DNA from: Candidatus Micrarchaeota archaeon
Lineage (GTDB): Archaea > Micrarchaeota > Micrarchaeia > Anstonellales > Bilamarchaeaceae
Direction: 5' to 3'
Assembly: GCA_018304385.1 (NCBI GenBank)
Contig: JAGVWJ010000005.1
Location: 2,814-66,813 of the forward strand
DNA length: 64,000 nt
Shown here: positions 4,820 through 51,036 of the stretch, one piece after another
Layout of the letters: each line of letters opens with the position of its first letter
Position numbering within the stretch: position 1 is the stretch's first letter
Program-made: the position numbers and the translations under genes
Notes under the pieces: generated by a model
What the model was told of the DNA's origin: nothing
Databases searched by the model: none
What the model saw: only the letters and a program-made list of their open reading frames with translations

Positions 4820-5737
4820 TTATTGAACATCCTGAATTTTCGTAATTGCTGTTACAAACTGTCCACAATTGCTTCCTATCTGATTTTCTTCAAGCTCGCC
4901 AATGCTTACAATTACATCAAAACCAAGCGAGCGAAGATCTTCTACTAGTTTATCGATTGAATTTTCATTCTCTGAATCTAATGCAGAAATAAGATTATTA
5001 TCAGTTGCTTTCTTCGTAGGGTTTAAAGGAGTAATCTTAACTAAAAATTTATTAGAATCAAAATATTCATCAATTACTTTTGGTTCAACTGGATAATCTT
5101 TCATAAGTGCGAAATTCAGTGTTATTTTTCTATCGCCTTCAACAAAAAATTTTTCTCCATACTCGCTAATCTGCTCAAAGCTCCATTTTTTAATTGGAAT
5201 TAACTTGTCGCGCTTTTCGAAGTCAGTTGTATGAATAGAAAACTGCATTTGAAATTTACCATGTTTATAATATTTGTTCTTAATTTCCAATAAACGCGCA
5301 AAAAAATCATCCCTACCTTCTGGCGCAATGGTTGAAACTGATGGAATTAGACCAGGCGCATTATACTGCGCTGGCAATTCTTCTAGTACATCAAGCACTG
5401 CATTGTTATACGCTGGCTCACCCATCCTGGTAAACTGCACCTTAAACTTGTCTGTTGGGATCTTTCTATCTGGGAACCTTCTGCTAACAATATGATCTAC
5501 CTGTGCAAGTATCTCTTCCTTTGAAAGATTGCCCCCAAACTGCTGTCCTGCATCGCACATTAAACATTTCACTGGACAACCATGCATTACCGAAAGTACA
5601 AGCACCCATTTTTTTTCTATTGGCAAATTCGGCTGGAAGGATTCTACGAATTCTATTAATTTGCCGCTTTTTGTACGCGCAATGAAAACTGTTGCGATAT
5701 TTTCTTTTCCATAATTTTGGATCACTTCGATTGACAT
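4820..5737 (-). CDS. radical SAM enzyme (RlmN/Cfr-like layout), substrate unknown
   Basis: CX3CX2C cluster in MHGCPVKCLMCDAG, followed by NLSKEEILAQV as in RlmN-type enzymes. Last gene of a 3-gene overlapping operon. Confidence 0.6.
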   Translation of the reverse strand: MSIEVIQNYGKENIATVFIARTKSGKLIEFVESFQPNLPIEKKWVLVLSVMHGCPVKCLMCDAGQQFGGNLSKEEILAQVDHIVSRRFPDRKIPTDKFKVQFTRMGEPAYNNAVLDVLEELPAQYNAPGLIPSVSTIAPEGRDDFFARLLEIKNKYYKHGKFQMQFSIHTTDFEKRDKLIPIKKWSFEQISEYGEKFFVEGDRKITLNFALMKDYPVEPKVIDEYFDSNKFLVKITPLNPTKKATDNNLISALDSENENSIDKLVEDLRSLGFDVIVSIGELEENQIGSNCGQFVTAITKIQDVQ

Positions 5738-6555
5738 GATAGAAACCTCCCTACTTTAATGGCGGTATTCAACCCATCACCAACTGCAATGGCAGTATGC
5801 CTGAAGTTTTGTAATTTAATGTCGCCAGCAAGAAAAATCCCTAATTTTTCCAAAGCGTCTGAATCATTTGCTAATAAATCCTGCCAGCTTTTGCTAATAA
5901 AGGGCAATTTTTTCTCTCTGCCAATTGCTACCAACGTATGATCAGAAGGAATTGAATCGAACTTACCAAATTTATATATTTTTATATTCTGCTTCTTTAG
6001 TGCGCGCTTATACAAAATGGGGATACATTTTGTTTTATTTTTAATGAATAGATTGACTTGTCTTGCAGCATTGGCTACGTTAATTGCGTAGTCAAATGCA
6101 ATATCACCACTGCCGATTATATTAATTGTTTTTCCTTCAACATCCGAAAGTTGATCCAAGTCATAAAACAATTTTCTCTTACTTAAATTTACTTCTCCAT
6201 TTAATTTTTTTGGAATAGAACCGCTTGCGATTATTATAGTTTTAGAACAAAAGGTTTTATGATTTGTTTTTATAAAAAAGGTGCTAGCTCTATTATCTAT
6301 GGATTTAACTTCCAGAAATTGCGGCTTTATATTATGCACTTCTAACTGCTTTTGGAATAACCTAACTAAATCAGCTCCAAAAATGCCGGCAGGGAAACCT
6401 GGATAATTCTCTATAAGACTAGCGTTATTTAACAACCCACCTACCTTCTTTCTCTCCAATAAAATTATGTTAGTACCTGCGCGCTTTAATTGAATGGCTG
6501 CTGCTATACCTGCTGGACCAGCTCCGATTATAATCACATCATACATTTTTATCAC
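5722..6555 (-). CDS. FAD-dependent pyridine nucleotide-disulfide oxidoreductase (thioredoxin-reductase-like)
   Basis: N-terminal dinucleotide fold YDVIIIGAGPAGIAAAIQL and a second GSGDIA site. No obvious CxxC redox pair seen. Confidence 0.7.
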   Translation of the reverse strand: MIKMYDVIIIGAGPAGIAAAIQLKRAGTNIILLERKKVGGLLNNASLIENYPGFPAGIFGADLVRLFQKQLEVHNIKPQFLEVKSIDNRASTFFIKTNHKTFCSKTIIIASGSIPKKLNGEVNLSKRKLFYDLDQLSDVEGKTINIIGSGDIAFDYAINVANAARQVNLFIKNKTKCIPILYKRALKKQNIKIYKFGKFDSIPSDHTLVAIGREKKLPFISKSWQDLLANDSDALEKLGIFLAGDIKLQNFRHTAIAVGDGLNTAIKVGRFLSCQSK

Positions 6556-8371: not shown

Positions 8372-8425
8372 CAACACAGTCTAGCTCCTGAGGAAATTAT
8401 TTTGCTTATGAGCTAGACTGTGTTG
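8372..8425. terminator. perfect 16-bp-stem hairpin downstream of the 8469-9335 gene
   Basis: CAACACAGTCTAGCTC (8372-8387) pairs with GAGCTAGACTGTGTTG (8410-8425) around a 22-nt loop. Read directly from the sequence. Confidence 0.4.
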
Positions 8426-8458
8426 TGAGCCTTGGGCCATGGGCATTGGGCATTGAGC
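8424..8458 (+). repeat. GC-rich heptanucleotide array, 5 units (tgtgagc cttgggc catgggc attgggc attgagc)
   Basis: Strict 7-nt period, consensus NNTGRGC. Member of a 4-site family (see 34341, 35114, 41499). Confidence 0.8.
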
Positions 8459-8468
8459 CATGAAAAAA

Positions 8469-9335
8469 TTAGTAGTCTTTTTTAACAGATAAGCCTTCAT
8501 CATCCAAACCAACAAATATTGGCAAGAGGCGCCCACATCTTGAAACTACTTCTTGGATTTCCGCGTGGGAAGGAAGAGGATTACTTAAAATTCCTTCACC
8601 CCATTTGGCAAGCATTTTTCTTGTAATATAAAGTGGATGTAAATTAACCAAAACAAATGCGACTCCGAATTTATTTTGCAGCTCTTTAACTCTTTCGATA
8701 GTTCTTACTGCTTCTTCTACTGCATCACGAAGCTGCATAGTTGGTACGGGCATAAGCATGACATTTATCTGCAAGCCCAAGCCAAGTTCTTTTGCCAATT
8801 GAAAAACCTGTTCCATGTGCTTTTCGCTAATCATTTTATGCAACCCACCTTCAGAAGTTCTTAATTGCACATCTTGAGTTTCATAACCAACTATAACCTC
8901 AAATCTGATGCTTGTTCTACTTATAATATAAAGAGCATGTTCTATCCTTTCTTTTCCCATTCTTGAGATAGCTATCTCAGGACGAGAGTCAATCCCAATG
9001 CATTCTAGATTTCGAAACATTAACATAGAGGTAATCGCAAAATTAAATGTTTCGTCGCTTATTTCAATCCTGCTTAAAACATTTCCTGACCCGTATAGAT
9101 TAACCTGCTTTACGAGATCTTTTTCATCACCTAGTTTTACAATATCCTCAACTAGTAAGCGCTGGTTTTCTTTTGGGTTTATACCCATTCCTAGTGTTGG
9201 AATATCACAGTGGTTGCATTGTCTTCCATAGAATACACAACCTTTAGCATTTTCGTTTTTAAGAAGTACTTCAAATCGCGGCCCTCTTGGGCTTACCCTT
9301 ATTGATCCGATTTTTCCATTTGCCATTGTAATCAA
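8469..9335 (-). CDS. radical-SAM-related / TIM-barrel-like protein, function unknown
   Basis: 288-aa ORF. Non-canonical Cys triad GCVFYGRQCNHCD (C-x6-C-x2-C). ATGA-type overlap with the upstream methyltransferase gene. Confidence 0.4.
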   Translation of the reverse strand: MITMANGKIGSIRVSPRGPRFEVLLKNENAKGCVFYGRQCNHCDIPTLGMGINPKENQRLLVEDIVKLGDEKDLVKQVNLYGSGNVLSRIEISDETFNFAITSMLMFRNLECIGIDSRPEIAISRMGKERIEHALYIISRTSIRFEVIVGYETQDVQLRTSEGGLHKMISEKHMEQVFQLAKELGLGLQINVMLMPVPTMQLRDAVEEAVRTIERVKELQNKFGVAFVLVNLHPLYITRKMLAKWGEGILSNPLPSHAEIQEVVSRCGRLLPIFVGLDDEGLSVKKDY

Positions 9336-20405: not shown

Positions 20406-20526
20406 TAATGAAAAACTAAAAACTAAAGATTTTTAATATGAAGCCCTCCTATATTTTTTACTTTTTATAAGAAAATATTGAACGGCTGACGCGGAGGAAC
20501 CGCGTTGATTAGGAGGGCAAAAGACG

Positions 20527-21060
20527 ATGGGAATTAGACCTGCAAAAGCAATTAGAGATATAAATAAGGTTGCGTGGACACGATACTCGAAGAGCAAACC
20601 AAGAAAGTCATACATAAAGGCTATGCCACATCAGGATTTACAGCAGTTTAGAATGGGTATACAAAAAGAAGACTATGATGTTATATTAAATCTGGAATGC
20701 CAAGAAGATGTAATATTACGGGATAACACAATTGAAAGCGCTCGCCAAAGCGCAAACAAACTCTTAGAAAAGAACATACCTACTGGTTATTACTTTATTG
20801 TAAGGATTTTCCCGCACCACGTAATCAGAGAAAACAAAATGATTGCTGGAGCTGGAGCAGACCGTCTACAGAAAGGTATGCGACAAAGCTTTGGCAGACC
20901 AACTGATAAGGCAGCACGCGTATATTCTGGCAAAGCGCTATTTACTGTATATACATACAAGCAATACGAACAACTAATTAGGCAGTCACTCGAAAGAGCA
21001 AAAAGAAAACTATCTGGTAGATTTAAGATAATTGAAGCTAAAAAAGGAAAGGCAGCATAG
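20527..21060 (+). CDS. rpl10e: 50S ribosomal protein L10e (uL16)
   Basis: N-terminus MGIRPAKAIRDINKVAWTRYSKSKPRKSYIK, with the internal RIFPHHVIRENKM...GAGADRLQKGMR motif. Confidence 0.9.
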   Translation: MGIRPAKAIRDINKVAWTRYSKSKPRKSYIKAMPHQDLQQFRMGIQKEDYDVILNLECQEDVILRDNTIESARQSANKLLEKNIPTGYYFIVRIFPHHVIRENKMIAGAGADRLQKGMRQSFGRPTDKAARVYSGKALFTVYTYKQYEQLIRQSLERAKRKLSGRFKIIEAKKGKAA

Positions 21061-32775: not shown

Positions 32776-33372
32776 CTAGTTTATCTTGAAATCTAGATCT
32801 GGGGCTTTTTCAGTACCTGCTGCAGCCTCAAAGAGTTTGCGTTCTTTGAATCCAAAAAGACTAGCAAAGAAATTTCCTGGGAATGTCTTTATTACTTTAT
32901 TATATTCAGTTACTGCATCGTTATAGCGGTTGCGTTCTACGCGCACGCGATTTTCCTGGCCTTCATATGTTGTCCTGAAATCCTTAAACGCTTCAGCAAA
33001 TTTTATATTTGGATAGTTTTCTTGTAGAACTATTGGAAAAACTGTGCTAATCGCGTTATCAAAATCTGCAGAAGCAGCAACCTTTTCATCAGTATTTCTT
33101 GCGCTTAAATAACGAGCGCGAGCATCTGCGAGATTCTTTAATATCTCTGTTTCAGCTTCTGTCTGTGCAACAACACTTTGCACGATACGTGGAATTAAAT
33201 CAAATCTTTCCTGATAAACAGTTTCTACCTTTGACCAGGCATTATCCACTTCTAGATTAAGAGATTGGATAGAATTATATTGCATAATAGTAAACAATAT
33301 GCCCAATACTACAAAACCAGCAAGCGCTGCTAATATGATCACAAATCCTTTTTTTGTTTGCATATATACCAC
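32776..33372 (-). CDS. LemA-family protein
   Basis: N-terminal TM helix plus RYNDAVTEYNKVIKTFPGNFFASLFGFKERKLFEA. Confidence 0.85.
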   Translation of the reverse strand: MVYMQTKKGFVIILAALAGFVVLGILFTIMQYNSIQSLNLEVDNAWSKVETVYQERFDLIPRIVQSVVAQTEAETEILKNLADARARYLSARNTDEKVAASADFDNAISTVFPIVLQENYPNIKFAEAFKDFRTTYEGQENRVRVERNRYNDAVTEYNKVIKTFPGNFFASLFGFKERKLFEAAAGTEKAPDLDFKIN

Positions 33373-33412
33373 CAGATTAATTACAAAGATAAGATATTAA
33401 AATATGAGGCTA

Positions 33413-34285
33413 TCACCAGCTGCCGCTTGCGCCTCCACCTCCACTCATACCACCACCAAACCCACCCCAACTACTTCCGCTAGAACTCCAACTTCCTCCG
33501 CTGTAACCACCAGACCAGCTTCCGCTTGTATCAGACCAACCTCCGCTTGTATTAAACAGGCCACCCTGCCATTTTGAAATAGATCTTCCAATGTTTGTAA
33601 ACTTCATAAAAAAAATAAATGGCAAAAACGCTATTGTTGCTGATATGAATAGATTTCCTACATATATCTCTAAGATAGCAAATAAAACCAAAGGCAATAC
33701 AAAAGGAAGTAAAAATAGAAGAAATGGCAATGAAAAAATTACGATAAATAAACCCCCTATGATATCAAAGATATCTAAACCATCATCTTGTTTGGCAACC
33801 AAAGAAGGTTCGTATCCGCCAGTTTCTATAATCTGCTTTATTGCAAGTACTGCATTATAAATTCCTTCTCCGTATTTCTCTTCTTTAAATTTCGGTTTTA
33901 TTATATTGTCTATTATATCCTTAGTATGAATATCTGTGAGTACGCCTTCTAATCCATAACCAACTTCAATGCGCATTTTTTGATCATTTAACGCAACTAA
34001 AATTAGCACACCATTGTTCTCATTTTTCTGCCCTATACCCCATTCCTTATATATCTCAACCGCATATGTTTCGATGTCCAAACCGTCCAAACTATTAACA
34101 GTAAGTACTGCAATTTCTACAGTAGTATTTTTTTCAAAAGCTGAGATAAGGGTATTTAGTTCCACTTCATACCCTTCACCAATAATGTCTGCATAATCAT
34201 TAACATAACCGATTGACTGTGGATAATTTTGTGCAAAACTAACTGAAAAAAACAAAAATAACATTAAAAACGTGCGGAAGTGCAT
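33413..34285 (-). CDS. TPM-domain protein (YgcG-like) with Gly/Ser-rich tail
   Basis: YVNDYADII...VEIAVLTVNSL...NNGVLILVALNDQKMRIEVGYGLEG. C-terminal TM segments and a GGxS-rich tail. Classic pairing with LemA. Confidence 0.85.
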   Translation of the reverse strand: MHFRTFLMLFLFFSVSFAQNYPQSIGYVNDYADIIGEGYEVELNTLISAFEKNTTVEIAVLTVNSLDGLDIETYAVEIYKEWGIGQKNENNGVLILVALNDQKMRIEVGYGLEGVLTDIHTKDIIDNIIKPKFKEEKYGEGIYNAVLAIKQIIETGGYEPSLVAKQDDGLDIFDIIGGLFIVIFSLPFLLFLLPFVLPLVLFAILEIYVGNLFISATIAFLPFIFFMKFTNIGRSISKWQGGLFNTSGGWSDTSGSWSGGYSGGSWSSSGSSWGGFGGGMSGGGGASGSW

Positions 34286-34340
34286 GCTAGGATAATGGTA
34301 AATAATTTATTAAATGTATTCGAAGAATATAGACTACTGC

Positions 34341-34410
34341 AGTGGGCAATGAGCAGTGAGCAGTGAGCCAAATGAAACGAGGCTCAAAGCTCAAGGCACA
34401 GGGCTCAAGG
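34341..34410. repeat. inverted pair of heptanucleotide arrays (4 x NNTGRGC, 13-nt spacer, 4 x GCYCANN)
   Basis: agtgggc aatgagc agtgagc agtgagc (34341-34368) faces ggctcaa agctcaa ggcacag ggctcaa (34381-34408). Pairing gives 5-bp helices separated by 2x2 mismatches. Confidence 0.8.
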
Positions 34411-34428
34411 CCAAAAGAGGTAATATTT

Positions 34429-35115
34429 ATGGATAGAGTAGCTACTGGAATAGAAGGATTAGATAAGATGCTTAATGGGGGTATTCCTGCAAGAAGGCAT
34501 GTTGCATTATATGGCGGACCTGGTGCTGGTAAAACAAGCTTTGCTTTTGAATTCTTATATCGTGGTGCAAAATTAGGGCAGAATGGCGTATATATAACGC
34601 TAGAGGAAACAGACGAAGATATAATAGCAAATATGAAAAATACCTTTCCAATGCTCACTGACATTGATGACGTAGTAAAACAAAAAAAACTAGAAATAGT
34701 AAAACCCGATAAGTTGCAATTAGAAGAAGTTGCGAATGTTTTGGAGGATAGAATAACTGAAAATGATATTAAACGCGCTGTTATTGACTCTGCTACTATG
34801 ATAAATCTATCATTTGAAAAACAAATAGAGTATAGGCAAACACTATTTGAATTTCTATCTCTTTTAAGAAACCTAGATTGCACAACCATAACAACATTAG
34901 AAGCAGCTACAAGTAGAAAAGAAGAGATGAGATTTGATATTGAACATTTTGTTATGGATGGAATTATAAGTTTGTATAATCTTGACAGAGAGGGCACGCG
35001 AATACGTGCTTTAGAAATACTGAAAATGCGTGGTACAGATCACGCACGCGATCTTGTTCCGTTTAAGGTTACGCCTTCTGGAATTAAGGTTTATGTAGGG
35101 GAAAAGGTATTCTGA
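34429..35115 (+). CDS. KaiC/RecA-superfamily ATPase (single-domain KaiC-like)
   Basis: MDRVATGIEGLDKMLNGGIPARRHVALYGGPGAGKTSFAFEF (Walker A). Walker B-like VIDS. Start chosen at 34429 because the track start at 34363 lies inside the heptad array. Confidence 0.75.
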   Translation: MDRVATGIEGLDKMLNGGIPARRHVALYGGPGAGKTSFAFEFLYRGAKLGQNGVYITLEETDEDIIANMKNTFPMLTDIDDVVKQKKLEIVKPDKLQLEEVANVLEDRITENDIKRAVIDSATMINLSFEKQIEYRQTLFEFLSLLRNLDCTTITTLEAATSRKEEMRFDIEHFVMDGIISLYNLDREGTRIRALEILKMRGTDHARDLVPFKVTPSGIKVYVGEKVF

Positions 35116-35148
35116 TTGGCCATGGGCTATGAGCAATGGGCAATGAGC
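35114..35148 (+). repeat. GC-rich heptanucleotide array, 5 units (gattggc catgggc tatgagc aatgggc aatgagc)
   Basis: Begins at the stop codon of the KaiC-like gene. Same NNTGRGC family. Confidence 0.8.
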
Positions 35149-35247
35149 AAAGTGATGTTTAATTTACATAAGAGAACATTGAATGACCGAATCGGGGTGC
35201 CGAACGTAGTGAGGTGGGGTCCCGATTCTAACCTAAGAAATCCATGA

Positions 35248-35601
35248 GTGCTGGAACATATGAACACACAAGAGATGCGAAAAATATTTTTTGTAATAAC
35301 TACTACGATTGGACTAGCAGTATTGCTCGCTGTATTAAAGTTCCGTGGAATTGAGATGAAGCAAGCACCGCTATTGTTTGTTGGTGCACTGCTTGGGCTG
35401 ATAATTTATATGCAAGAAAAAGAGCACAACATAATTGCATGGCTGCTTGCAGGATTTCTTGGGTTTTTAGTATTCCCAATAACCTATGAAAACAGGAATC
35501 TAAGCCAGCTTGCGATTTTTGCCTTGATATTTACGATTTTTGTATTGATGCCACCAATATTAATAAAATTAAGAGAACGGATTTTTACAGAAACAGTATA
35601 A
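35248..35601 (+). CDS. small membrane protein
   Basis: 117-aa ORF with four hydrophobic helices. Confidence 0.45.
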   Translation: MLEHMNTQEMRKIFFVITTTIGLAVLLAVLKFRGIEMKQAPLLFVGALLGLIIYMQEKEHNIIAWLLAGFLGFLVFPITYENRNLSQLAIFALIFTIFVLMPPILIKLRERIFTETV

Positions 35602-40186: not shown

Positions 40187-41479
40187 ATGGCTAAAATAGA
40201 CTGGTATGATGAATTTGTTGATTTTCATTATAAACCTGCAAAGGATGATTTAGTTTGTCTCTACTATTTTGAACCTGGAGAAGGCATAAGCGCAAAGGAG
40301 GCAATAGGCAGAATTGCAAGTGAAAGCTCTTCTGGAACTTGGACAACACTATATAAGCTGCCAGCGCGTGTTGCAAAGATTAAGGCGCGTGCGTTTGTAG
40401 TAAAAGGTAATTATGTGAAAGTAGCTTATCCAATAGACTTATGGGAAGAAGGAAACGCGCCACAATTACTAAGTGGAATTGCAGGAAACATATTCGGTAT
40501 GAAAGCGCTTAAGAATTTACGATTAATGGATGTAACGCTACCGCATGCTTATCTTAAACATTTCAAAGGGCCAAGCTTAGGTATTCACGGAATAAGGAAA
40601 AAAATGCGTGTTGCAAAACGTCCGCTAACTGGCGCAGTTCCAAAACCAAAAATAGGCTTCAGCGCGCAAGAGCATGCAGACATTGCATTTGAAACATGGA
40701 TGGGTGGATTTGATATTGTAAAGGATGATGAAAATTTGACTACAACAAATTTCAATAGATTCGAAGATCGAGTAAAGCTGATGACAAGATTGCGCGATAA
40801 GGCTGAAAAAGAAACAGGTGAGTGCAAAGATGCATTTCTCAATATAACTGGCGAAACAAACGAGATGATCCGAAGAGCGAAGCTGCTGTATGACAGTGGA
40901 TGGAGATTCGCAATGATAGACGTAGTAACTGCTGGCACTGCTGCAGTGCAAACTTTACGCGATGTGTGCGCCGAGCTCGGCCTAGCAATACATGCGCATC
41001 GCGCAATGCATGCTGCATTTGATAGGAATCCAAAACATGGAATGACAATGTATTTCTTAGCAAAATTAATGCGATTAATTGGAGCTGATGAGATTCATGT
41101 TGGAACTGCTGTAGGAAAATTAGTTGGCACGGCCCAAGAAGTAAAATCAATAGCTGATATGCTAAGAGAAAATCGCATAAAAGAAGGAAAATTAAATCTT
41201 GCGCAGGATTGGGGCAATCATAAACCAATGCTTCCTGTTTCTTCAGGTGGATTGCATCCTGGCCTAGTGCCAGCTGTAATGAAAATATTTGGAAATGATC
41301 TTACGCTTTTAGTTAGTGGAGGCATTCATGGTCATCCTAAAGGCACGCGCGCTGGTGCTAAAGCAGCAATGCAGGCAATAGAAGCAACAATGAATGGCGT
41401 AAGCCTAGACGAATATGCGAAAAAGCATGTTGAACTTGCGCAAGCATTGGAGAAATGGGGATACTACAAACCGAAGTAA
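40187..41479 (+). CDS. rbcL: RuBisCO large subunit, form III-like
   Basis: GIAGNIFGMKAL, PKPKIG, GGFDIVKDDENL (carbamylated-Lys motif), HAHRAMHAA, SSGGLHPG. 430 aa. No small-subunit gene nearby. Confidence 0.9.
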   Translation: MAKIDWYDEFVDFHYKPAKDDLVCLYYFEPGEGISAKEAIGRIASESSSGTWTTLYKLPARVAKIKARAFVVKGNYVKVAYPIDLWEEGNAPQLLSGIAGNIFGMKALKNLRLMDVTLPHAYLKHFKGPSLGIHGIRKKMRVAKRPLTGAVPKPKIGFSAQEHADIAFETWMGGFDIVKDDENLTTTNFNRFEDRVKLMTRLRDKAEKETGECKDAFLNITGETNEMIRRAKLLYDSGWRFAMIDVVTAGTAAVQTLRDVCAELGLAIHAHRAMHAAFDRNPKHGMTMYFLAKLMRLIGADEIHVGTAVGKLVGTAQEVKSIADMLRENRIKEGKLNLAQDWGNHKPMLPVSSGGLHPGLVPAVMKIFGNDLTLLVSGGIHGHPKGTRAGAKAAMQAIEATMNGVSLDEYAKKHVELAQALEKWGYYKPK

Positions 41480-50102: not shown

Positions 50103-51036
50103 TTAAGGATTTACTATTGGCCAGATCTGCTTTCCTTTGTGATATACGCTCCCAGCACGTATTGCTGCTTCAAATAATGGCCCCGACATATTCCCATTAA
50201 TGTGTATTTCACCGCCATACATGCTACATGCAACTGTTATTCCAACGTCGCCCATAACCAAAATACTGCCTCCATGCATCTCTGCACCTAGAGTATGGCC
50301 ACAGTTTCCTTGAACGATTATTTTACCGCCTCTCATCTTCAACCCAACATAATTTGAAGCATTGCCTTTTATTTTGATAGAGCCTCCATTTAGCATAATC
50401 CCTGCAAACGGTGCAGCATTACCATAAACAATAATCTTACCTTTCATGCAATTTCCGAGCCGTTCACCTGCATTTCCCTTCACTATGACTGTACCACCAT
50501 CCATTAGCGCGGCGCAATCATATCCTGCGTCACCTTCGACAATGATGGTTTTTCTATTATAAATTCCTAAAAGGCCTAGGTCGTCTAGATGACGAGTAAA
50601 TATTGTGTAAGTAGAATCCGACCCATTATTTATCAATGCACTCAGGAACAAACCAGCTCTTTTAGCAAAATCTTTTTCATTCTGAAATTCTCTTATTTAT
50701 CAATGCACTCAGGAACAAACCAGCTCTTTTAGCAAAATCTTTTTCATTCTGAAATTCTCCAAGAGCAAGGTTGAAATTCTCGATATCCGCTTTAGTGTAT
50801 GCGAAACTTCGAATAAGTTCTAATGCTTTCTGGTAACTTTTTCTTGGGTCGACAACAGCCATATCGTCTTTAACAAGCTCGAAGTTTTGCCATGCCTGCT
50901 TTAGAGCTCTTAATGTTTCGTTTTCTTTTATCTCTGCTTTTCTAACTGCGTGTGTAGGCTCGCGTTTATATCTTCGAAATTGATCACTCGCTCGAGCATC
51001 CGAAACTTTTGCGATTCTCCTTTCAACTAGCATCAT
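50103..51036 (-). pseudogene. GXGXG-repeat paralog split by a 67-bp tandem duplication
   Basis: Track ORFs 50677-51036 (N-module, ends ...AGLFLSALINKRISE*) and 50103-50651 (starts MFLSALINNGSDS...) are two halves of one gene. 934 nt minus 67 nt gives 867 nt, which is 289 codons. Confidence 0.85.
50626..50759. repeat. perfect 2 x 67-bp tandem duplication
   Basis: 50626-50692 equals 50693-50759 base for base (ttatttatcaatgcactcaggaacaaaccagctcttttagcaaaatctttttcattctgaaattctc). The flanking bases differ. Confidence 0.95.

Follow-up and report, generated by a model that had tools for sequence, protein, structure and literature searches.

We consider it fairly probable that the inverted pair of heptamer arrays in front of a KaiC-like gene of a Micrarchaeota archaeon is a gene-less member of a class of intergenic heptamer arrays and hairpins that resemble the intervening sequences (IVS) of rRNA genes, and that any effect it has on the transcript is generic at most. 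The pair lies in a window of 64,000 nucleotides, by which we mean the whole stretch of DNA analysed, and its host belongs to the DPANN archaea. It does not look like a dedicated KaiC switch, since it belongs to a repeat class that comes and goes between close relatives.

Layout and predicted folding of the pair

The pair is made up of two arms and a short spacer:

34341-34368, plus strand: left arm, four heptads AGTGGGC AATGAGC AGTGAGC AGTGAGC (consensus NNTGRGC)
34369-34380, no strand: spacer of 12 nt, which forms the hairpin loop
34381-34414, minus strand: right arm of inverted heptads, read on the minus strand as TTGGC-CT-TGAGC-CC-TGTGC-CT-TGAGC-TT-TGAGC

The four direct heptads at 34341-34368 and the four reverse heptads at 34381-34408 (ggctcaa agctcaa ggcacag ggctcaa) are present exactly as the original prediction had them, but the spacer measures 12 nt and not 13. 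C34369 pairs with G34381, leaving a loop of 11 nt. The right arm reaches 34414 via a fifth, degenerate unit (TTGGC on the minus strand), and its third unit is GCACA. The lag-7 autocorrelation of the pair is 0.63. The window arrays have an exact period of 7 with 4-5 units per array around the core TGRGC; the cores are conserved and the 2-nt spacers between them are free.

Our predictions suggest that the pair can form a stable periodic hairpin as RNA, which agrees with the earlier proposal of a structured element. The RNA fold of 34330-34420 has an energy of -33.9 kcal/mol (z -4.36), and none of the 200 shuffles was equally good. The predicted RNA structure runs 6 bp / 2x2 / 5 bp / 2x2 / 2+2 bp / 2x2 / 5 bp / 2x2 / 2 bp, and the 2x2 loops of this ladder are purine-purine mismatches. 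The regular ladder of 5-bp helices and 2x2 mismatches first described is only partly recovered: periodic helices are indeed predicted, but one rung consists of 2+2 bp around an A.A mismatch and another contains a G.U pair. Like the arms of IVS-like cassettes, the two inverted heptamer-array arms are predicted to be able to form one stem. Across all intergenic gaps of the window the pair is the second most stable 80-nt fold. The same stretch folded as DNA reaches just -15.6 kcal/mol (z -2.8), so if the structure matters, it should matter in RNA. A DNA cruciform was rejected for the same reason, as the periodic 2x2 mismatches leave only this energy.

Several familiar elements were considered and rejected. 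Rfam 15 gave no gathering-level match anywhere in the window and nothing relevant in 34200-35300 at E values up to 1, and a known RNA family was rejected for want of a match. An intrinsic terminator was rejected as well, since no terminator-like site was found in 34000-35400 and the flanking genes diverge from the spacer. No tRNA was found in the window. A G-quadruplex was rejected because no window array has four G3 runs; TGGGC units number three at most in any window array, with one in the left arm of the pair.

Another stable structure of the window lies at 20441-20520 (-28 kcal/mol), just upstream of the gene at 20527-21060. Its outer stem GCCCTCCTA/TAGGAGGGC surrounds an inner hairpin, GACGCGG/CCGCGTT, as well as a promoter-like stretch rich in A+T.

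The array family within the window

The pair is no decayed gene, as the original prediction already argued, and it does belong to a dispersed, 7-nt-phased family. The pattern (TGRGCNN)x3 with at most 2 mismatches has 17 matches at 5 arrays in the window, where shuffles lead one to expect 0.35. The three further family sites that had been predicted do exist, at the following positions:

8426-8458, plus strand: array A1, five units, 10 nt from the stop of the minus-strand gene at 8469-9335
35116-35148, plus strand: array A4, five units, beginning directly after the KaiC stop codon
41499-41531, minus strand: array A5, five units, 19 nt after the stop codon of a form III RuBisCO gene

None of the three is coding, and each has a stop codon at a distance of 0-19 nt. 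The family is present in many copies (5 arrays at 4 sites in 64 kb), and the orientation of the arrays relative to the neighbouring gene is mixed within the window. Non-coding DNA makes up only about 8% of the window (92% is coding), yet it contains all four sites, the chance of which is roughly 1e-4. The original prediction would have been weakened by a motif no more frequent in intergenic DNA than expected from composition; within the window this objection does not hold, with 4 of 4 sites intergenic. The RuBisCO gene beside A5 (large subunit, PF00016 / PF02788) occupies 40187-41479, and in one relative (L136) it lies 4.5 kb downstream of KaiC.

That all five window arrays have TGAGC as their end, and that A4 and A5 are identical at 28 of 32 nt, hints at the copying of a defined element of ~33 nt rather than at slippage having built each array independently. 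Outside the arrays the window sites have nothing in common: we saw neither shared flanks nor terminal inverted repeats nor target duplications. The sites are therefore no pieces of a longer IS or MITE, an origin that would have counted against the prediction. The pair is short, G+C-rich, dispersed and inverted, as an IS or MITE fragment, a chance occurrence or an assembly artefact might be. We nevertheless consider any of these highly improbable: the sites share the arrays only, independent assemblies of at least 10 samples gave the identical sequence, and the 17 matches against 0.35 expected speak against chance.

An alternative hypothesis is that the arrays are operators or iteron-like elements, in which a DNA-binding protein would read one heptad per subunit and block or modulate KaiC transcription, the remaining window sites being further binding sites of a global factor. 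The strict 7-bp phasing, the conserved TGRGC core and the free 2-nt spacers are in line with this, as is the occurrence of arrays in both direct and inverted arrangement. The unit is kept in genomes of 36% and ~65% G+C, fitting sequence-specific recognition, and the pair directly follows the predicted promoter. However, the iteron-like binding first suggested finds no support in the positions of the sites, just one of the four being near a promoter while the other three abut stop codons. The relatives moreover carry the array elsewhere or nowhere at the KaiC locus, so the gene is independent of it. We regard an operator as unlikely.

Two well-known systems offer functional analogies only. The omega ribbon-helix-helix repressor of plasmid pSM19035 uses 7-bp units, one per protein dimer, in direct or inverted arrangement; its operators sit in the promoters of a few plasmid genes, whereas most window arrays are at gene 3' ends. 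The REP / BIME elements of enterobacteria are G+C-rich intergenic repeats of ~35 nt that follow stop codons in both orientations, often as inverted pairs, and are able to stabilise the upstream mRNA. A single REP is an imperfect palindrome mobilised by the RAYT transposase. Unlike REP, a single window heptad array is not self-complementary, as the folds of A4 and A5 are no better than those of shuffles (z -1.2 and +0.2, respectively).

Two of the arrays have a separate hairpin nearby. A near-perfect hairpin of 16-17 bp with a 22-nt loop at 8372-8425 abuts array A1 downstream of the minus-strand gene at 8469-9335, and with ~-42 kcal/mol it is the strongest fold in the intergenic DNA of the window. 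The composite of array and hairpin recurs after KaiC, where A4 is followed by this feature:

35189-35228, plus strand: G+C-rich hairpin GAATCGGGG...CCCGATTC, 40 nt after A4, inside a spacer of 144 nt, without an Rfam match

A repeat of a different kind is found at 50626-50759, a perfect tandem duplication of a 67-nt unit (TRF score 268) that spans the gap between the ORFs 50103-50651 and 50677-51036. Either the unit was duplicated recently or the repeat is an artefact of the assembly.

The leader of the KaiC-like gene and its state in relatives

The pair is located between the predicted promoter and the start codon of the KaiC-like gene, where we recognise these features:

34306-34314, plus strand: predicted TATA-like box TTTATTAAA of the KaiC-like gene, invariant in five aligned upstream regions
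34315-34340, plus strand: conserved promoter-proximal or initiator block GAAGAATATA..., from the alignment
34415-34428, plus strand: remaining leader with the Shine-Dalgarno sequence GAGGT (34416-34420), which is conserved in relatives
34429-35115, plus strand: KaiC/RadA-like single-domain ATPase gene of 228 aa (PF06745, E 1e-55)

For annotation purposes, the longest ORF of this gene opens at GTG 34363 within the left array, while the true start is ATG 34429, as the homologues all have 228 aa at 100% coverage. These homologues are 77-91% identical and labelled Micrarchaeota, Micrarchaeia or Bilamarchaeaceae, and the exact protein is present on contigs from aquifer and groundwater metagenomes. 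The five aligned upstream regions have an invariant ATAAATAATTTATTAAAG..GAATATA, then a variable stretch, and then a conserved GGAGG-type ribosome-binding site and ATG. Judging from archaeal promoter geometry, TTTATTAAA is predicted to be the TATA box, and transcription is predicted to start near 34336-34340, ~26 nt downstream of the TATA centre. The pair probably represents the 5' end of a KaiC leader RNA of ~92 nt, since it sits between the conserved promoter block and the ribosome-binding site. The Shine-Dalgarno sequence is unpaired in the centroid structure, i.e. the predicted hairpin leaves it single-stranded. Across the relatives the leader varies from ~38 to 96 nt, being ~38-56 nt without an insert, with the promoter block conserved.

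The gene order in the relatives is the RFC small subunit (minus strand), KaiC (plus strand), a gene of 107-116 aa and IleRS. This synteny is also seen in relatives without arrays, which argues that KaiC is resident and that the arrays were added later. A mobile KaiC cassette bracketed by arrays was rejected on the same grounds, the gene being syntenic in array-free relatives. Compared with all relatives examined, the window has an insertion at 32776-34285 between the RFC small-subunit gene and KaiC, made up of a LemA (PF04011) and a TPM-domain (PF04536) gene. We rejected the idea that the arrays mark this insertion, because its junctions carry no heptad arrays.

The state of the leader differs widely among the relatives:

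L131-133, KaiC 91% identical: an insert of 66 nt where the window leader has the pair, 51% identical, against 84% for the promoter block
L259, KaiC 89% identical: one reverse array GCTCA CG GCTCA TT GCCCA GT GCCCA directly upstream of the TATA box, no leader insert
L268, KaiC 87% identical: a different, G+C-rich multi-hairpin region as upstream region
L134, L136, L137, L260, L261, L263/L266 and L269, KaiC 79-90% identical: no array

As in IVS-like cassettes, presence and absence differ among close relatives at the same gene junction. The insert of L131 has a lag-7 autocorrelation of 0.56 and folds with -20.6 kcal/mol (z -2.1). By its units TAGGN / GCTWA it reads as a decayed or diverged version of the window pair, with one apparent G-C to A-U double change. 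Positions 1-265 of L268 hold at least 4 short perfect hairpins, e.g. TTGACGC..GCGTCAA and TTTGTCAGCG..CGCTGACAAA, and represent a different structured insert at the same junction. On the other side of the gene, the spacer from KaiC to the next gene is 0-36 nt in the relatives versus 144 nt in the window, and both array A4 and the hairpin at 35189-35228 are lineage-specific, being absent in all relatives. We found one array in ~100 kb of related Micrarchaeota DNA, which is partly redundant, versus 5 in the 64-kb window. The state of the leader in the relatives indicates that arrays are gained, lost and relocated over a short evolutionary scale and that KaiC expression is independent of them. 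The pair is not conserved at the locus, which speaks against a KaiC-specific regulatory site.

One could still suppose a selected element of the KaiC mRNA, whose periodic stem would set the half-life or serve as a gene-specific processing site. Such an element would account for a strong fold placed exactly between the predicted start and the Shine-Dalgarno sequence, with the latter free, and for a hairpin of different sequence at the same place in L131. We judge it very unlikely, however: the pair is missing from the leader in 8 of the 9 other relatives compared, its arms are ordinary family arrays with no co-adapted order, Rfam gives no match for the element, and one rung is mismatched while another has a wobble pair.

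Phase variation is another explanation, in which slipped-strand changes in the number of heptads would alter the promoter-gene spacing or the leader. The tandem unit is not a multiple of three and lies between promoter and start codon, as this would require, but the units differ from one another. Across both spacers that flank KaiC, ten contigs from different samples have the same sequence and show no length difference, although these are assemblies in which rare variants may be missed. We hold phase variation to be exceedingly improbable.

Heptamer arrays elsewhere and the meaning of the pair

The unit of the window arrays is also abundant in bacteria, where it again forms inverted pairs. Among the matches listed for the general four-unit pattern in genome contigs we saw only bacteria, including Cyanobacteria, Acidobacteriota, Gemmatimonadota, Bacteroidota, Planctomycetota, Verrucomicrobiota, Actinomycetota and others. 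With a 44-bit pattern made specific for the window arrays, the matches listed from metagenomes are mostly soil contigs of 60-70% G+C; these carry ATTGRGC arrays that are heterogeneous like those of the window. The host of the window is not among the matches listed for either pattern, and we derive no frequencies from them. ATTGGGC-type arrays occur in Nostoc, Calothrix, Tolypothrix and Fischerella among the matches listed. Genes in the bacterial loci were called only crudely. Of 213 internal sites, 84 have a stop codon that points at them no more than 60 nt away, at a median distance of 8-11 nt, and the ratio of TGRGC to GCYCA on the sense strand is 49:35 (p 0.16).

The loci from the matches listed contain 24 non-redundant inverted pairs. 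When the unit order in one arm was permuted, the folds became no weaker (mean z +0.17; 17 informative pairs, the window pair among them), so that stems arise by juxtaposed arrays and not by arm-by-arm co-evolution. Bacterial neighbours with a real spacer are inverted in 22 cases versus 7 out-of-phase direct ones, and the inverted, hairpin-forming design may thus be favoured and not accidental. We do not claim any special preference for TGRGC as a core, because the control cores used on viral contigs were partly rotations of real repeats: CGRTG and GCRGT correspond to real TGAGCGA and AGTGAGC arrays, and only GTRCG is independent. On viral contigs this GTRCG control gave 58 loci versus at least 120.

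Families of tandem heptanucleotides scattered in intergenic DNA are not new as such. The STRR, reportedly described by Mazel et al. in 1990 (cited in PMC4692102), are short tandemly repeated repetitive heptamers of heterocystous cyanobacteria. They resemble the window arrays in being families of tandem heptanucleotides in intergenic DNA, but STRR arrays are often longer and of identical units, with several unrelated units per genome. The GGGAATC / GGGANTN repeats of Xanthomonas and GGGGAYT of Nostoc are intergenic heptamer repeats described by Rehm et al. in 2015 (PMC4692102). Their arrays mostly have about four units, are heterogeneous with a conserved core and ~90% intergenic, and lie much nearer to where the upstream ORF ends (mean 28 nt), with equal use of both strands and some inverted pairs (PMC4692102). 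The window arrays match them almost point by point in units, intergenic position, ORF-end location, use of both strands and inverted pairs. They differ in that the Xanthomonas and Nostoc repeats have another unit, are G-quadruplex-capable and have bacterial hosts, while the window arrays are from an A+T-rich DPANN archaeon.

The TAACTGA direct repeats of Beggiatoaceae, cyanobacteria and Bacteroidetes (MacGregor 2015, PMC4679880) are likewise intergenic heptamers, in 2-6 copies, with a patchy cross-phylum spread for which no transfer mechanism is known (PMC4679880). They are located a few nt upstream of start codons and hardly ever occur inverted, with one indirect repeat in 170 sets (PMC4679880). 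Of the four window sites, by contrast, three come after stop codons and one consists of an inverted pair. A literature search with the literal repeat strings returned nothing relevant, and in the literature on this class we found no description of intergenic heptamer arrays in archaea.

A link to the rRNA intervening sequences comes from the PF05635 (S23p / IVP) cassettes. In the IVS of the Coxiella 23S rRNA, inverted repeats at the ends form a 28-bp stem; the element also holds an S23p ORF and tandem heptamers that vary, is excised by RNase III, and is described as selfish and variable between strains (PMC4990558). We seeded 360 loci (2.7 Mb) on TGRGC arrays and found PF05635-like ORFs in 6 of them, 4 of which are directly bracketed by inverted heptamer arrays. 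The bracketed cases, which come from bacterial and viral-collection contigs, are as follows:

L051, Algoriphagus, 5457-6087: CAGTGGG x4, PF05635 ORF, heptamers x13
L168, 1197-1689: ATTGAGC, PF05635 ORF (frameshifted), GCYCAAT x9
L242, 5413-5928: GCYCAAT x6, PF05635 ORF, TTGRGC x6
L286, 11860-12313: PF05635 ORF bracketed by inverted heptamer arrays
L432, 440-896: PF05635 ORF likewise bracketed, in a locus from the GTRCG control pattern

In L168 both the unit and the arm orientation are identical to those of the window pair. These independent cases, with L168 and L242 carrying an ATTGRGC-type unit, support linking "orphan" heptamer hairpins to rRNA intervening sequences. The pair is like the 23S rRNA IVS / PF05635 cassettes in its inverted-repeat ends forming a stem and in having heptamers within the element (PMC4990558). 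It is unlike them in that its loop is 12 nt without an ORF, it lies outside an rRNA gene and its arms join only via 5-bp cores with 2x2 mismatches. The bacterial IVS elements are cut by RNase III. Searches with tblastn and jackhmmer found no PF05635-like ORF in the window or in the Micrarchaeota loci. Given the 12-nt loop and the lack of such an ORF, the pair is at most a gene-less relative of IVS-like cassettes.

We propose that the pair arose as two adjacent, oppositely oriented copies of a short array (NNTGRGC)4-5, which would be dispersed through the non-coding DNA of the Micrarchaeota genome. A resident, syntenic KaiC-like gene would have acquired it in its 5' leader, where it begins a few nt past the predicted transcription start and stops just before the ribosome-binding site, and it would be transcribed as the 5' end of the KaiC mRNA. 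A 5'-terminal imperfect stem of this kind could slow 5'-end-dependent decay or give a double-strand-specific nuclease a target. The pair would be tolerated in the leader because the ribosome-binding site stays free, and the arrays may persist since spacers near gene ends tolerate them. With its 12-nt loop, the pair would be a gene-less version of the IVS-type hairpin cassettes.

Some observations stand against this generic reading. Although its sequence has diverged by 49%, L131 still has the 7-nt periodicity and a hairpin at this position, and the structure could be under constraint. The excess of inverted spaced neighbours (22 vs 7) and the uniform TGAGC array ends likewise speak against the generic reading. 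A further hypothesis, which we think quite unlikely, would make the pair an archaeal gene-less member of cross-domain selfish elements with inverted heptamer-array arms that are served by a dedicated trans-acting partner. If this were true, the partner, for which the PF05635 four-helix-bundle protein or a double-strand-specific nuclease would be candidates, would recognise, maintain or process the arms. In that case such a partner would have constrained the periodicity and hairpin of L131, and the system would have spread horizontally, bringing the ATTGRGC unit to Micrarchaeota, soil bacteria and cyanobacteria alike.

The relatives provide a natural experiment, in which the same promoter and gene come with a leader carrying the canonical pair, a decayed pair, an array shifted upstream of the promoter, or none. 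With the pair and its sister arrays, the intergenic heptamer arrays, themselves unexplained, now include members from a DPANN archaeon.
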